Of a stretch of DNA of 64,000 nt, positions 39,917-54,336 are shown piece by piece; positions within the stretch are counted from its first letter, which is position 1, and the number at the start of each line of letters is the position of its first letter. The stretch lies in contig OY762654.1 in the NCBI GenBank assembly GCA_963666205.1, positions 2,432,001 to 2,496,000 of the forward strand, read 5' to 3'. A program made the position numbers and the translations under genes. The notes below the pieces were generated by a model that ran no database searches, was not told the origin of the DNA, and saw nothing but the letters and a program-made list of their open reading frames with translations. Source of the stretch: Synergistales bacterium. Lineage in GTDB: Bacteria; Synergistota; Synergistia; Synergistales; JAFGMB01.

Positions 39917-40636
39917 TTGACTGAAAAGAAAGCTGGTTGCACAGTTCCATCCGCAAAAGTCGCTAAAAGTGATTCAGAAAAACTTCCTGTTCAGACTGAT
40001 ATAGTTAAGGAGGAAAAGGGTATGACAGTTATGGTTGGTAAAAAGGCCCCGGATTTCACTGCTCCTGCGTTTCATAAAGGAGAATTCAAGACAGTAACAC
40101 TTTCAGACTACCTCGGCAAATGGGTAGCGCTCTGTTTTTACCCCGGAGACTTCACTTTTGTCTGAGCCACTGAAGTTTCGGCAGTTGCCGATCAATATCC
40201 CAAGTTCCAGGAACTTGGTACAGAAGTTATTTCCATGAGCGTCGACAGCCAGTTCGTCCACAAGATCTGGAATGATGTGGAACTTTCCAGGATGGTTGAG
40301 GGTGGAGTACCCTTTGCTATGGCTTCCGACAGCGGCGGCAGCATTGGAAGAGTTTATGGAGTTTACAGTGAAGAAGCGGGAGTGGATGTGAGGGGAAGGT
40401 TCCTTATAGATCCTGACGGGGTGATACAGGCCATGGAAGTCCTGACGCCTCCTGTTGGAAGGAACGTGAGTGAAACCCTCCGCCAGATTCAGGCCTACCA
40501 GCTTGTAAGGGAATCCGAAGGATCCAAGGCTACTCCCTCAGGCTGGAAACCGGGCGGCAAGGTGCTCAATCCCAACATAGACCTTGTGGGTAATGTGTGG
40601 AAAGAGTGGAATCCCAAAGACGTTTACGGAAAATAA
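39917..40636 (+). CDS. prxU: selenocysteine-containing peroxiredoxin (AhpC/PrxU type)
   Basis: ORFs 39917-40165 and 40235-40636 are in the same frame; TGA 40163-40165 falls at the peroxidatic position [13 protein letters not shown]; alternative start ATG 40022. Confidence 0.9.
40178..40191 (+). promoter_or_regulatory. putative bacterial SECIS hairpin
   Basis: TCGGC-AGTT-GCCGA stem-loop beginning 12 nt after the in-frame UGA, G in loop. Confidence 0.6.
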
Positions 40637-49076: not shown

Positions 49077-49880
49077 ATGCTTAAACTGAAGGAGGTATCT
49101 GATTTGAATATTTTCACGGTTTTAATCCTTGTTTTATTCCTTTATATGACTGCTTTTTTTATAGTTGCAATGATCAGAAAGGATAATTCTCTGGCTGATA
49201 TAGCCTGGGGCGGGGGTTTTGTGGTCCTTACCATCCTATCCTTTTTTTTCTCTCCCGGAGAAGCAGAGGCAAGGCAGGTCCTTGTAACAGGTCTTGTAAC
49301 AGTCTGGGGAGGGCGTCTGGCACTTCATATTTTACTTAGGAACAGAGGTAAGGGGGAGGATTACCGCTATGCCAAATGGCGCAAGGATTGGGGGAAATCT
49401 TTTGTTCTGAGAAGTTTTCTCCAGGTCTTCATGCTCCAGGGGAGTCTTCTCCTGATTATCGTTTTTTCTCCGGTCTATATTAATCTCAATCCATCACGGG
49501 GTCTTACCTGGTTTGACGGATTAGGACTTCTTGTATGGACTTCCGGTTTTTTCTTTGAAGCTGTTGGAGATTACCAGCTTGGCAAGTTCACGGGGGATCA
49601 GGGCAACAAGGGAAAGGTTATGGATAAGGGTCTCTGGGCTTACACGAGGCATCCGAATTACTTTGGTGAATCGGCCATGTGGTGGGGTATATTCTTCATG
49701 GCTCTCTCCATAGAGGGAGGCTGGATAACTATCGTAAGCCCCATAACAATAACTTTTCTTCTTCTCAAGGTTTCAGGTATACCGATGTTGGAAAAAAAAC
49801 TCATAGAGAATCAAAGGGGATACATTGATTACATGAACAGGACAAGTCCCTTCTTCCCTTGGTTCCCGGGGAAAAAATAA
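49077..49880 (+). CDS. DUF1295 (steroid 5-alpha-reductase-like) membrane protein
   Basis: DIAWG, GEDYRY, GLWAYTRHPNYFGE...WWG. Confidence 0.9.
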   Translation: MLKLKEVSDLNIFTVLILVLFLYMTAFFIVAMIRKDNSLADIAWGGGFVVLTILSFFFSPGEAEARQVLVTGLVTVWGGRLALHILLRNRGKGEDYRYAKWRKDWGKSFVLRSFLQVFMLQGSLLLIIVFSPVYINLNPSRGLTWFDGLGLLVWTSGFFFEAVGDYQLGKFTGDQGNKGKVMDKGLWAYTRHPNYFGESAMWWGIFFMALSIEGGWITIVSPITITFLLLKVSGIPMLEKKLIENQRGYIDYMNRTSPFFPWFPGKK

Positions 49881-50917
49881 TGAACCTTTTAACTTCCATT
49901 GCGGAGAGAGGATTTGTACCAGACAGACTTATCAGGTCCGGGATAAGGTGCAGACTGAGAAAAATACTTCAGGATCATGAAATGTTAAACACTGATCATC
50001 CCGATCAGATTGAATCTTTCCTGGATGAAATGGAGAAGGAGTCCATTGCTCCTTCTCCAGAAAAGGCAAATCATCAGCACTACGATCTTCCTCCAGAATT
50101 TTTCAGTTCTTTTCTTGGACAAAGGATGAAATACAGCTGCTGCTTCTGGGGATCCGGAGCCCGAAACCTCAACAGGGCAGAGGATGCTATGCTCGAGCTT
50201 ACATGTAGGAGGGCCGGGATAATAAACGGACAGTCCCTGCTTGATCTGGGGTGCGGATGGGGATCCCTTTCCTTTTATATGGCTGAAAAGTATCCTGATT
50301 CCACGATACTGGCAGTTTCAAATTCAAGGGAACAGGTAGAGTTTGTTCTTCAGGAAACTGCACAAAGGGGTCTGAAAAATCTTGATGCAGTTATTGGAGA
50401 AGTTTCTTCATTCCACCCGAATGAAAGGTTTGATAAAATTATTTCAATAGAGATGTTTGAACACATGAGGAACTGGAAAACCCTTTTTAAGAGGATTGCC
50501 TCCTGGCTTAACCCGAATGGCTTGTTTTTCTGCCATTTTTTTTGTAATTGCAGATATCCCTATTTTTTCAGATCAGAGGAGAAGTCTGAGTGGATGGGGC
50601 ATTATTTTTTCACAGGAGGAATGATGCCGAGTTTTTTCCTTCCGACTTTTTTTCAGGAGGACCTCCATGTTATAAAAAGCTGGAAGGTTAGCGGAAACGA
50701 TTATTCAAAGACCCTTGAAGTCTGGCTCAGGAATCTGGATGATAATAAAGATGTAACCAGATCGATCCTGGAAGGTTACTACGGAAAAAATAGAGTGGAT
50801 CTATGGTTTCAGAGGTGGAGAATATTTCTGCTTGCATGCAGTGAACTTTTTTCTTATAACGAAGGTCAGGAGTGGTATGTTGCCCATTATTTAATGGAAC
50901 ATGCCAGAGAAAGTTAA
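49880..50917 (+). CDS. cyclopropane-fatty-acyl-phospholipid synthase-family SAM methyltransferase
   Basis: ANHQHYDLPPEFF, KYSCC, LDLGCGWGS, SIEMFEHMRN, FTGGMMPS; ATG 49880 overlaps upstream stop. Confidence 0.85.
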   Translation: MNLLTSIAERGFVPDRLIRSGIRCRLRKILQDHEMLNTDHPDQIESFLDEMEKESIAPSPEKANHQHYDLPPEFFSSFLGQRMKYSCCFWGSGARNLNRAEDAMLELTCRRAGIINGQSLLDLGCGWGSLSFYMAEKYPDSTILAVSNSREQVEFVLQETAQRGLKNLDAVIGEVSSFHPNERFDKIISIEMFEHMRNWKTLFKRIASWLNPNGLFFCHFFCNCRYPYFFRSEEKSEWMGHYFFTGGMMPSFFLPTFFQEDLHVIKSWKVSGNDYSKTLEVWLRNLDDNKDVTRSILEGYYGKNRVDLWFQRWRIFLLACSELFSYNEGQEWYVAHYLMEHARES

Positions 50918-50932
50918 CTTTGAGGAGGGCCT

Positions 50933-52720
50933 ATGGGAAAAATAACCCATGTTGACGGAATTCATTTGCGATATGCTTTTCAAGCTGGTACCAGATGTCT
51001 GGGATCAAGCAGAGAGCATCTTAATCTGATCAATGTTTTCCCGGTCCCTGATGGGGATACTGGAACCAATATGTTTTCCACCATGAGTTATATATCCAGC
51101 CATGCTATTTTTTCAAGGTCTTTTTCAAGGACTTTTATTTCTATAGCAGAGACTGCTCTTCTTGGAGCAAGGGGAAATTCAGGGCTCATACTGGCACAAT
51201 ATCTTTATGGCCTGAGCCAGGTCTTTGACGGACATGAAAGGATATCTACAAAGGATTTCGGTCAGGGTGTCATGTTAGCTTTCCCATTCGCCTTACAGGC
51301 TCTTTCAAAACCGGAAGAGGGAACTATCATAACTGTTCTACGGGAATGGAGCCAGGCAGTAGATGAATTAAGCAGGGTTTCCCAGGATTTCATGGATGTT
51401 CTGGATCTTTCCCTTGAAACTGCCCGTCGTTCTTTGTCCCAGACCACAGAAAAACTTAAACCCCTTAAAGATGCAGGAGTTGTAGATGCCGGAGCTCTGG
51501 GTTTTGTCCGTTTTATTCAGGGGATCCTGGAATCAGGTAAAGATCGAACTACTATCTGTTATCCTTCAGATGACGGAACAATATCCCGTAATTACCTGAA
51601 ACATTCCAGCCATGATGAGTCTACTTCCTTCAGATACTGTACGGAAATATTTCTTGAAGGGATTGAAGATCTTCCTGTAGAAAAAATAAGGGAAGATCTT
51701 TCCAGGAAGGGAGATTCTCTTGTTATAAGCGGGGCAGATAAACGTCTGAGAATACATATCCATACAAATGAGCCTTCTGAAATAGCAGTTTCGCTCAAAA
51801 AATGGGGTGATCTGACCCATCAGAAGGTGGATGATATGTACAGACAGCAGAAATCTCTCTTGATCAATAATTCCCGCAATAAAGTAGCACTTCTTACCGA
51901 TTCTGCCTGCGATCTTCCACAGGAGATCCTGGATAGTTATAACATTCATGTTATACCCATGAAACTGACCATAGGTAAGGATGAATATCTGGATAAACTG
52001 ACAATAAAACCGGAACAGGTTTACAGACGGATGAATTCATCCGATGTTTTTCCTGTAAGCTCCATGCCCAGTCAAGGAGAATTTATGGAGATCTATTCGA
52101 AACTACTTGAGATTTACGATTCAGTGATAGCCATCCACCTTTCAGATAAACTGAGTGGAACCTTCAATGCCAGTTATCAGGCTGCATCAGGTCTTGGTAT
52201 GCTTCAAAGGGTCAGTGTCATAAATTCTAGAAATCTATGTGTTTCCCTTGGCCTGATAGTCCTTGAGGCTGCTTCAGCTCTTGGAAATGGTTGCGACCAC
52301 CGAGAAGTTGTCCGCATTGTAAATACCTCACTCGAGAGGGCTTTTATATATGTCAGCCTGGCAGATCTGAAGTACATGGTCCGGGGAGGAAGAATAAGCC
52401 CCATGAAGGGACATATTGCCCGTTTTCTCAACCTGAAACCAGTCATATCGGTCGATAAAGAGGGTAAGGGTATACATTGCGGCAAGGTCTGCGGAAGAAA
52501 TGCTAATCTCTCCAGAATAAGAGATCTATTCATGAGGCATTGGGTAGAGGGCAAAGTATCTCGCTATGCAGTTGTTCATGCAGGTGCAGAGGCGGAAGCA
52601 GCGGAATTCGCAGAAAAATTGTTTGAACTTACAGGAAAAAGAGTAGAGTACATAATGGAGATATCCCCGGTTATAGGTATCAACTCGGGACCAGGCTCAT
52701 TGGCTGTCGGAGGGGTTTAA
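50933..52720 (+). CDS. DAK2 (FakA-like)-DegV (FakB-like) fusion protein
   Basis: INVFPVPDGDTGTNM, GARGNSG, EGTI, VVDAG, YCTE, HIHT then TDSACDLP, SDKLSGT, GGRI, LKP. Confidence 0.9.
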   Translation: MGKITHVDGIHLRYAFQAGTRCLGSSREHLNLINVFPVPDGDTGTNMFSTMSYISSHAIFSRSFSRTFISIAETALLGARGNSGLILAQYLYGLSQVFDGHERISTKDFGQGVMLAFPFALQALSKPEEGTIITVLREWSQAVDELSRVSQDFMDVLDLSLETARRSLSQTTEKLKPLKDAGVVDAGALGFVRFIQGILESGKDRTTICYPSDDGTISRNYLKHSSHDESTSFRYCTEIFLEGIEDLPVEKIREDLSRKGDSLVISGADKRLRIHIHTNEPSEIAVSLKKWGDLTHQKVDDMYRQQKSLLINNSRNKVALLTDSACDLPQEILDSYNIHVIPMKLTIGKDEYLDKLTIKPEQVYRRMNSSDVFPVSSMPSQGEFMEIYSKLLEIYDSVIAIHLSDKLSGTFNASYQAASGLGMLQRVSVINSRNLCVSLGLIVLEAASALGNGCDHREVVRIVNTSLERAFIYVSLADLKYMVRGGRISPMKGHIARFLNLKPVISVDKEGKGIHCGKVCGRNANLSRIRDLFMRHWVEGKVSRYAVVHAGAEAEAAEFAEKLFELTGKRVEYIMEISPVIGINSGPGSLAVGGV

Positions 52721-52888
52721 ACTGATCCTGGTAGTATCTGTCATTGAATGAATCCACACCCGGGAGGGGAATTTCAAGTATTAAGCAGTATGGCGGCGTA
52801 ATACCTGTACAGGCACTGTTTTCCAAGGCCAGTAGTCTATAAATGCCTCTGACCTCAAATATATAGCACTATATACCGAGGGGGTATC

Positions 52889-52917
52889 TTGACACAAATG
52901 TTCTTATGAACTAATAT
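52889..52917 (+). promoter_or_regulatory. sigma70-type promoter
   Basis: TTGACA-17 bp-TAATAT. Confidence 0.72.
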
Positions 52918-52920
52918 ATA

Positions 52921-53324
52921 GATGCCAGGACAAAGAAGGCGAAAGTTCAGTGGAAGTAGTTCTTGGCATTGCCGGGTTATCTGGATTTTTTGCAGTAGAT
53001 CCAATGTACCAGATGTACGGCACAAAGAAACGAAAAGTTGTAAGTTTTACGAGTAGATTGTAGGGTAATCAGGTTAGTGTAAGTGAAGGAGTTGTTAGTT
53101 TGGAGCAACACTTTTCAAACCAGATAACCCGGCCTATTTGCAAAGGAGGGAACCGGAAAATAGGAATAAGATCAGTTCCCGTTACCGAAAAACCGAATAT
53201 GGACATATTGACAGGGTGACGAACCCTGGGAGAGCTGCATAAGGCTCAGAGCAGTCCGTGAGTTAGCCGGGCTTGTCTCAGAAAAACAGATCAGGGAGGG
53301 CGGTTTTTACCGTCCTCCCTTTTA
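52921..53324 (+). ncRNA. candidate large structured non-coding RNA (~400 nt), family not recognised
   Basis: no ORF in track; promoter upstream, terminator downstream; 14-bp long-range helix 52971-52984/53120-53133 and several hairpins with G.U pairs on the + strand. Confidence 0.6.
53293..53324 (+). terminator. rho-independent terminator
   Basis: AGGGAGGGCGGT-TTTT-ACCGTCCTCCCT followed by TTTATTATTT; G.U pair favours + strand. Confidence 0.8.
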
Positions 53325-53771
53325 TTATTTCTTTTCAGGCTGATATACAAGAACTGAGCAGGGAGAATGCCTTACCACTTTTGCTGCTACGCTTCCTATG
53401 AAGAACTGTGACAGATCAGATAATCCCCTGTTTCCTATCAGAATGATCTGATAATTCTCCTTCTCAGCCCTGATTATGATCTCTTCACAGGGTATTCCAT
53501 ATGTTATTATGAAATTGTATGGAGTGGTCAGACCTTCCAAATCCTTAACAGATTCTTCAACAAGAGCAGCAAATTTTTTTCGAAGATCTTCCTCTGTGAG
53601 GGGTGCGGTTTTTCCCTCAGCATCCCATCCATCAACCCTATGTGTCTTTTTCCCCCAGACATGGATAAAATCAAGATGGTCTATATCATTTCGTTCAGCG
53701 TATTTAAATGAATATTTAACCAGAGCTTTACTTGTTTGACTGTAGTCTACTGCAACCAGAGCCTTTTTCAC
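53325..53771 (-). CDS. universal stress protein (Usp family)
   Basis: LVAVDYS, IGNRG, FFIGSVAAKVVRHSPCSVLV. Confidence 0.9.
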   Translation of the reverse strand: MKKALVAVDYSQTSKALVKYSFKYAERNDIDHLDFIHVWGKKTHRVDGWDAEGKTAPLTEEDLRKKFAALVEESVKDLEGLTTPYNFIITYGIPCEEIIIRAEKENYQIILIGNRGLSDLSQFFIGSVAAKVVRHSPCSVLVYQPEKK

Positions 53772-54000
53772 AAATATTACCTCCCTCTTTACACTCTACC
53801 TGATTATTATACGACAGTTTATCCAATTCCATTTAAAACTTATTCTTCATGGAAAATAGAAGGTGTTTTTTTGTCTTAAATTCCTCATGACGCCAGACTA
53901 ACGTGGTAATATAGTGTAAAATACATTATAAATAAAGAATTTATTCAAGGGGATTATTTCAGGAACCTTTTCCCAAGCCTTATATGAGAGGTGAATCGAC

Positions 54001-54336
54001 ATGGATAAGATGGATAGAAATGAATTTGAACAGTATTCATTATTACGTAAAAAACTGGAGCTACGTTGTGAGCAGTTATGTCATGTTTATGTAGAGCAAT
54101 ATTATAATCTCGAGAAGGATGACAGGCAGATATTTATTACTAATCTTGAAATTGGGAAAAGCGGACGCATTCTTATCCAGTATGTTGATGGGGATATGGA
54201 GGAAAAACTTTATCTTCCTCCCGAATATCTATGGAGAACCGATGAAGAGGTAAGGGTATTAATGTCCATTGACAAGGAGAAAAAGGAGGTATCTCTCAGA
54301 GAGCATCGAGAAGAGCATCGCAAAAAAGATGATTAA
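54001..54336 (+). CDS. hypothetical protein
   Basis: 111-aa ORF with GAGGTG Shine-Dalgarno. Confidence 0.65.
   Translation: MDKMDRNEFEQYSLLRKKLELRCEQLCHVYVEQYYNLEKDDRQIFITNLEIGKSGRILIQYVDGDMEEKLYLPPEYLWRTDEEVRVLMSIDKEKKEVSLREHREEHRKKDD

Follow-up and report, generated by a model that had tools for sequence, protein, structure and literature searches.

A probable gene for an abundant structured non-coding RNA of an undescribed family in Synergistales

OLE, ROOL, GOLLD and raiA are large orphan structured RNAs of bacteria, and all are Rfam families. The RNA described here resembles them in being long, structured, highly expressed and narrow in range, and in having been found by sequence before function. 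It is encoded on the + strand at 52889-53330 of a 64,000-nucleotide (nt) stretch of DNA from a Synergistales bacterium (assembly GCA_963666205.1, contig OY762654.1, positions 2,432,001 to 2,496,000), hereafter the window. Unlike OLE, ROOL, GOLLD and raiA, it is smaller, has no match in Rfam, has a conserved fold that is demonstrable in part only, and is confined to four genera of one order among the genomes searched. The locus is very probably a gene in its own right, encoding a structured non-coding RNA that is highly expressed and belongs to an undescribed family. It is a stand-alone gene with its own promoter and terminator, conserved in relatives, and it represents a new family within the known kind of stand-alone bacterial structured RNAs.

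To our knowledge, almost no regulatory RNAs have been described in Synergistota. No report of this RNA was found in the full-text literature searched, a scope that most subscription journals lie outside. An intergenic screen of a Synergistetes genome (Thermovirga lienii) has been published, and no motif recognisable as this RNA was seen in its available text or in parts of its supplementary table S1c (PMC6429828), nor in the available part of PMC8632094.

The gap that holds the RNA gene is flanked by the stop codons of two genes, a Dak2-DegV gene (52720) and a convergent universal-stress-protein (usp) gene (53325). An initial annotation of the window had described a gap of about 600 bp without an open reading frame (ORF) of 60 amino acids (aa) or more. 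The distance is 604 nt, and the ORF list, with both flanking genes excluded, holds no ORF of at least 60 aa there. The same annotation had read the locus as a stand-alone structured non-coding RNA, and this reading is supported by the absence of Rfam matches, by homologues with covariation, and by contigs assembled from RNA.

Environmental RNA libraries contain the RNA. All or part of the stretch is present in 20 of 22 listed sequencing runs, nine of which are RNA runs, with the listed rows coming from nine studies. Four RNA runs from four studies (X6, X11, X15 and X17) were compared, as assembled contigs. Contigs with no differences from the window cover 52939-53294 in X11, 52971-53287 in X15 and 52940-53236 in X17. 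None of these three runs has a contig over the upstream spacer, and X15 and X17 have none over the usp gene. X6 has deep contigs over 52957-53052 (depth 24,182) and 53134-53193 (depth 22,600), and its contigs running into the flanking genes have depths of 386 and 493. Single contigs thus put the RNA about 50-fold above the flanks, and summed depth puts it higher still. The flank contigs belong to another strain, as they carry 6 and 9 differences. The libraries come from sediments, a microbial mat and wastewater, and the RNA is assembled even where neighbouring genes are unseen; thus, it is among the most abundant transcripts of these organisms. Read from the contigs, the RNA is about 350 nt long, discrete and very abundant. 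The annotated + strand transcript of about 400 nt, with a 5' end near 52922, is borne out in so far as RNA contigs cover about 52939-53294, but these contigs start near 52939. In X11, adapter letters directly precede 52939, and in a second contig they follow 53292. Judging from the -10 box, transcription would be expected to start at 52922-52925. The end near 52939, about 15 nt further on, is possibly a processed end.

X11 also contains a second, low-depth contig over 53155-53292 with 12 differences, showing that this sample also expresses a diverged relative of the RNA. In X6 the deepest contigs are confined to 52957-53193 (the H1 domain and helix P2, Table 1), and the 3' hairpins are far less covered; a stable processed fragment may lie behind this coverage, although contig depth is no basis for ranking parts of the RNA.

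The annotated near-consensus promoter matches the consensus at 10 of 12 positions and is the best of six promoter-like sites in 52400-54100. Shuffled sequences of this 1.7 kb give 4.3 +/- 2.2 such sites, and a lone site means little. A promoter with 10-11 of 12 matches is, however, found at the equivalent position before the RNA in all five genomes of the window's family (f1), which are the genomes with the long form of the RNA. In genus g24 of a second family (f3), the scores are 10, 8 and 8 of 12. At the other end, all eight RNAs known terminate in a G+C-rich hairpin followed by a T run, with hairpin sequences that differ between genera. In the window the terminator adjoins the stop of the usp gene.

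Homologues are found in eight species of four genera, comprising 5/5 genomes of the window's family and 3/3 of genus g24. The RNA is about 360-400 nt long in the window genome (G000) and 400-450 nt in the other genera with the long form; the short form is about 200 nt. A DNA search of 61 related genomes found the sister species (G001, 95% identity) and one other sequence, G033:C68:13316-13358 (E 0.0014), a chance match that falls inside a 347-aa ORF. Compared with the sister species, the 29 promoter bases are 96.6% identical, the leader 98.1% and the H1 domain (52971-53133) 97.5%, against 87.5% for the adjacent upstream spacer and 93.5% for the usp gene. The interior of H1 diverges strongly between genera. 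R1, an H1-domain covariance model trained on the window's genus alone, found the copy in G003, another genus of the family, with 28 bits. The G003 locus is syntenic on both sides; its promoter stands at the same position, and its terminator differs in sequence. The copies of genus g2 (G002 and G004) were found by synteny, directly upstream of a gene for a 111-aa protein with no usp gene between; R1 failed to detect them even with filters off. A model of the conserved 3' block (R2) found all three genomes of genus g24. With these added (R3), 7/151 genomes sampled from the phylum score 85-132 bits, the next best scoring 25, and in family f3 that level is reached by 3/107 genomes, all of genus g24.

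A search for the pattern CCGGCNNATTTNNNAAGGAGGGA gave 13 loci in species-representative genomes, among which only the known G001 and G003 loci pass R1, and 21 loci in JGI metagenome contigs, none of which passes. Weak model matches of at most 25 bits (G002:C32, G004:C39, G014, G050, G079, G031, G070, G155, G201 and others) are not counted as members. L087 (G002:C32:2213-2338) and L088 (G004:C39:11844-11954) score 19-25 bits with the core models and have GAATA-type boxes beside terminators. Both looked like chance, one being a terminator before an asparagine-synthase-like ORF and the other the end of a Lys/Ser-rich ORF.

All eight RNAs have a core in common. It starts with a purine-rich leader carrying AAAGGA or AAAGAAGG, followed by helix P2, an unpaired AAYYGAAUA box, hairpins P3, P4 and P5, an A-rich linker and an intrinsic terminator. 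In the long form, found in the window's family, leader and P2 are separated by a box UUCAGUGG and by a 163-201-nt domain that helix H1 closes. In the short form, found in genus g24, the leader runs directly into P2 and the whole H1 domain is missing. The two forms may differ by an insertion or by a deletion. Coordinates in the window are collected in Table 1.

Table 1. Positions of the RNA gene's features and of neighbouring genes in the window (MFE, minimum free energy).
Feature	Position	Strand	Remarks
Sigma-70-type promoter	52889-52917	+	-35 TTGACA 52889-94; 17-nt spacer; -10 TAATAT 52912-17
5' leader	52921-52970	+	purine-rich ACAAAGAAGGCGAAAG 52930-45; box TTCAGTGG 52946-53; 10-bp stem
10-bp 5' stem	52921-30/52961-70	+	two G.U pairs; from MFE fold
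Helix H1, 5' strand GCCGGGTTATCTGG	52971-52984	+	perfect 14-bp pairing with 53120-53133
H1 interior ("expansion domain")	52985-53119	+	135 nt; 154-173 nt in other genera
Within H1 interior: ACCAGATGTACGGCA	53009-23	+	
Within H1 interior: box AAGGAG	53086-91	+	TTG 8 nt further on
Within H1 interior: hairpin GTTGTT/AGCAAC	53091-53109	+	
Helix H1, 3' strand CCAGATAACCCGGC	53120-53133	+	perfect 14-bp pairing with 52971-52984
Junction ATTT and helix P2	53134-53186	+	purine AAGGAGGGAAC 53143-53 with GTTCCC 53175-80 and CC 53185-86
Single-stranded linker	53187-53211	+	conserved box AA-Y-Y-GAATA (AACCGAATA, 53191-99)
Hairpin P3 CAGGGT/ACCCTG	53212-53228	+	6 pairs
Hairpin P4 GAGCT/GGCTC	53232-53247	+	loop GCATAA
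Hairpin P5	53249-53279	+	core GTCCG 53254-58/CGGGC 53268-72; outer GAG/CTC
Intrinsic terminator	53293-53330	+	12-bp stem 53293-53320; loop TTTT; then TTTTATTATTT
Dak2-FakA_M-DegV fusion gene	50933-52720	+	upstream of RNA gene
Universal-stress-protein (usp) gene	53325-53771	-	convergent with RNA gene
111-aa protein gene	54001-54336	+	no Pfam family match

Within the leader, the box TTCAGTGG is retained in 4/5 RNAs of the window's family, G002 having TCCAGTGG instead. Both 14-mers of H1 occur once in the genome. When the RNAs are folded separately, 7/8 pair the purine tract of P2 (AAGGAGGGA, GAGGAAGGGGGA or GAAGGAGGGGA) with CCC..TCC or CCTTC further downstream, in a register that varies between lineages. 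In the window RNA the MFE structure picks a different pairing, and P2 as GGGAAC/GTTCCC is a manual reading. Of the conserved stretches outside the conserved helices, the linker box is the longest; GAATA is invariant in 8/8 RNAs and CAA[CT]TGAATAG is present in 5/8. All eight RNAs have a hairpin at the position of P5. A long-range pairing between UUCAGU in the leader and ACUGAA in the conserved box may exist. In G001 both the MFE and the centroid fold contain it. In G003 it is present in the MFE fold, which uses the first of two UCAGU copies, and only three of its pairs survive in the centroid. By manual reading it contains a mismatch in G000 and G002, and the short form has no partner for it.

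The 404-nt stretch folds at -128.2 kcal/mol (z-score -3.9), and 0/100 shuffles fold as well. The reverse strand reaches a z-score of -4.1. Both strands fold about equally well, and folding energy alone is therefore no guide to the strand. Orientation is fixed by the G.U pairs together with the conserved + strand promoter and the terminators: the G.U pairs would be A.C on the opposite strand, and thus the RNA is read from the + strand. The terminator and orientation of the initial annotation accordingly hold, with a 12-bp stem and T run, and G.U-type changes in the helices that fit the + strand only.

Judged from the alignments, base pairs are maintained by compensatory change in H1 and in the 3' hairpins. 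The perfect 14-bp helix proposed for the window is paired in 70/70 cells across the five RNAs that have it. Its pair 10 is compensatory (C-G in three RNAs, U-A in two), and one-sided changes occur at pair 1 (G-C in three, G.U in two) and pair 8 (U-A in four, U.G in one). For P3 and P4, a model-fitted alignment of the eight RNAs has 91.1% of cells paired, compared with 28-56% when partners are slid by 1-3 columns, and two-sided changes in 5/10 pairs. The covariation score, 0.45, exceeds the 0.17 +/- 0.05 of shuffles, and 0/500 of these score as high. P3 by itself is paired in 97.9% of cells; its pair 5 is G-C in six RNAs and A-U in two, and pair 6 is A-U in three, G-C in two, U-A in two and unpaired in one. 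In P4, 3/4 pairs of this alignment are changed on both sides. RNAalifold recovers the P3 and P4 hairpins on the alignment already fitted to the model. With strands registered by hand, 47/48 cells of P3, 39/40 of P4 and 39/40 of P5 are paired, with 2-4 standard pair types per position in P4 and 2-5 in P5. The homologues in other Synergistota and the covariation that the initial annotation had looked to as a check are thus present, as eight related sequences with compensatory changes in H1, P3, P4 and P5.

On inspection of the sequence, every element listed in the initial annotation is present, with positions that agree to within one base. This includes the smaller hairpins GTAC/GTAC, GTAA/TTAC, GATTG/TAATC, GTTGTT/AGCAAC, GAAAAGT/ACTTTTC, GGGAAC/GTTCCC, AATATGGACATATT and CAGGGT/ACCCTG. 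Relatives retain the 14-bp helix and two of the proposed 3' hairpins, GGGAAC/GTTCCC (as a purine/pyrimidine helix) and CAGGGT/ACCCTG, but in the third, AATAT-GGAC-ATATT (AATATGGACATATT), the sister species has two changes that disrupt the pairing. The 5' stem does exist in the window, as does the repeated motif (CAAAGAA at 52931 and 53023, each copy followed by AAAGTT), but both are limited to its genus. The detailed multibranch model inside the 14-bp helix is not supported, being neither conserved nor recovered as an RNAalifold consensus.

No known family accounts for the RNA. The initial annotation had expected as much, and neither the 64-kb window nor any of the seven homologous loci has a match in Rfam 15 at gathering score. 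At E-values up to 10, only sub-threshold matches of at most 20.7 bits appear, the best by E-value being CsrB (18.1 bits, E 0.0095); at E-values up to 1, six of the homologous loci yield one unrelated 20-bit match. ARAGORN reports nothing in 52000-54000. Transfer-messenger RNA (tmRNA), ribonuclease P (RNase P) RNA and signal recognition particle (SRP) RNA, whose signatures the initial annotation had looked for in vain at the locus, are each found elsewhere in the genome: RNase P RNA at 40229-40575 (308 bits), tmRNA at 2723201-2723551 (198 bits) and SRP RNA at G000:C1:2830770-2830869 (72 bits). A 6S-like match at G000:C1:505656-505832 (-), with 36.5 bits under a cut-off of 46.4, is probably the genome's diverged 6S RNA.

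As to mechanism, we commit to a guess that has somewhat less than an even chance of being right: the RNA would act in trans, as a riboregulator whose exposed AAYYGAAUA box pairs with other RNAs. Several points weigh against this reading and the evidence beneath it. The results tie no target, partner protein or phenotype to the RNA, and among the eight loci no gene neighbour is common to long and short forms. Hfq was not found in the complete genome, which removes one common helper of pairing RNAs; many bacteria do without Hfq. The cell table for P3-P5 is biased by strands chosen by eye, the covariation alignment of P3 and P4 was fitted to the model, and the shuffle control overstates significance because there are only eight related sequences from four genera. 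P2 and H1 show little covariation because they are conserved in sequence. For the 135-173-nt interior of H1 no consensus fold was found, RNAalifold on a MAFFT alignment giving only H1 and two short doubtful stems. The RNA contigs give neither strand, true ends nor levels. One of the best-covering runs may stem from the very sample that yielded the genome, and carry-over between libraries might in principle explain the 100% identity seen across habitats.

A real, if doubtful, possibility is that the RNA is bound by protein in a housekeeping or decoy role, serving as scaffold or sponge for one protein with H1 and the conserved boxes as recognition sites. This agrees that the gene encodes a stand-alone non-coding RNA and differs in mechanism only. 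It would suit the very high level of the RNA relative to the neighbouring genes, the large number of separate blocks that stay invariant within about 130 nt of core, the conservation of the 14-bp H1 in sequence and not in pairing alone over three genera, and the failure to find Hfq. There is, however, no candidate protein: the 111-aa neighbour is absent from 3/3 genomes with the short form and present in 28 genomes that gave no RNA. The RNA also bears no resemblance to 6S, SRP or CsrB.

A more elaborate picture, which we consider improbable, is a new modular class of large and very abundant ribonucleoprotein-type RNAs. Two Synergistales families would have the core of about 200 nt in common, and one lineage would have added a domain of 160-200 nt with its sequence-fixed 14-bp stem and its conserved look-alike of a ribosome-binding site ((A/G)AGGAG, 8 nt, UUG). 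The RNA would then engage the translation machinery or a novel RNA-binding protein, as a decoy or scaffold, instead of pairing with mRNAs.

Control of a neighbouring gene is decidedly unlikely. The RNA could be a riboswitch-like sensor whose terminator controls read-through, for example antisense to the convergent usp or CcdA-like gene. Its layout is aptamer-like, with several conserved junction stretches and then a terminator, and the downstream gene is convergent in 6/8 loci (window, G001, G003 and genus g24; usp in the window, CcdA-like in g24). However, no conserved pairing that competes with the terminator was found, the sequence of the terminator differs per genus, and Rfam gives no riboswitch matches. 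In genus g2 the downstream gene is the co-directional 111-aa gene, which has its own promoter (CTGACA-17-TATAAT or CAGACA-17-TATAAT) after the terminator of the RNA; thus, the RNA is not a leader of that gene. The initial annotation had dismissed a riboswitch leader on account of the convergent downstream gene, a judgement that extends to G001, G003 and g24 and, by way of the separate promoter, to g2.

The initial annotation had also suggested a protein-sequestering small RNA like CsrB, here a sponge titrating CsrA by many GGA motifs. We give this little credence. CsrA is encoded in the genome (76.3 bits), CsrB is the weak best Rfam match by E-value and the long form has two conserved (A/G)AGGAG boxes. 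The match, however, reaches 18.1 bits where RF00018 has a gathering score of 71. GGA occurs 7-15 times per RNA and exceeds dinucleotide shuffles in 1/8 RNAs (p 0.024, uncorrected), with p 0.22-0.93 in the others, and the folds place the conserved AAGGAG boxes in helices, not in hairpin loops. In addition, FliW, a protein antagonist of CsrA, is encoded directly upstream of csrA, at a distance of 72 nt (locus G000:C1:1646646-1647235, +).

It is very improbable that the RNA is a small-protein mRNA or has a dual function, for instance through the frame 53100-53219, with AAGGAG 8 nt before TTG. The arrangement (A/G)AGGAG-8 nt-TTG is present in 5/5 long forms, but the frames that follow are 39, 39, 19, 6 and 6 codons long and unlike each other, and the site is missing from the short form. 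Compared with the sister species, the first 23 codons of 53100-53219 are unchanged and 5/5 changed codons are non-synonymous, which suggests a constraint at the level of RNA rather than protein. Across eight ORFs of 34-56 aa on either strand, the same comparison counts 32 changed codons as non-synonymous and 7 as synonymous; one start codon has disappeared, and stops have arisen in two frames. By these substitutions, the ORFs of the region do not behave as coding.

Least probable of all is a DNA-level inverted repeat (mobile-element remnant, recombination site or operator) with incidental transcription, which the perfect 14-bp repeat around a variable interior, and the resemblance of the short form to a gene without the insert, might suggest, but which is opposed by the single copy of the element in the genome (R1 finds one per genome), by the lack of similarity to plasmid or phage records, by G-C to G.U and U-A to U.G changes that keep the + strand RNA helix and break the DNA palindrome, and by an interior whose 97.5% conservation in the genus far exceeds that of the neutral spacer and which RNA libraries cover more deeply than any other part.

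Gene context offers no clue to the function of the RNA. The sole neighbour conserved in the window's family is the 111-aa gene, which is there always the next co-directional gene 3' of the RNA. It is present in 33/151 genomes of the order (families f1, f5, f6 and f9) and in 0/3 of genus g24. It does not co-occur with the RNA; beside the gene in families f5 and f6, the best R3 score over seven loci is 3.7 bits.

The gene upstream of the RNA encodes a 595-aa fusion protein with Dak2, FakA-like middle and DegV domains, so that both parts of fatty-acid kinase are united in a single chain. It is directly preceded by a gene for a CMAS-type cyclopropane-fatty-acid synthase, and the pair spans 49859-52720 (+). 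Orthologues of the fusion are found in the four other genomes of the window's family and in G009. In G002, G004 and G009, the DNA downstream of the orthologue holds other genes.

The RNA is notable for its size, abundance and two-form architecture, and its significance is limited by a narrow distribution. RNAs of such size with several invariant blocks have often proved to have unusual biochemical roles. The short and long forms, one domain apart, are a natural experiment on module gain in structured RNAs, and the RNA could mark the activity of these organisms in environmental samples. With a defined gene, boundaries and eight homologues, the question of its role becomes testable.

Among well-described RNAs, 6S RNA (RF00013) is likewise an abundant, stable RNA of a few hundred nucleotides, but the RNA described here lacks the long stem closing both ends, and RF00013 gives no match at the locus. 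CsrB/RsmB (RF00018) is also an abundant stand-alone RNA of similar length that ends in a terminator, and CsrA is encoded in this genome; however, GGA is not overrepresented in the RNA, hairpin loops with GGA form no array, and CsrA is accompanied by FliW. Small and large SRP RNAs form one family with and without an entire extra domain, depending on lineage. The likeness to them is an analogy of the two forms only, with no relation in sequence or structure. Trans-encoded small RNAs with a sigma-70 promoter and a Rho-independent terminator differ in that the long form here is much larger than usual, with a separate domain of 160-200 nt, in that many blocks are conserved beyond a seed, and in that Hfq was not found in the genome. 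The RNA resembles these small RNAs in its promoter, terminator, intergenic site and lack of coding potential, in a conserved unpaired box between hairpins, and in the short form of about 200 nt, which is of typical size for them.

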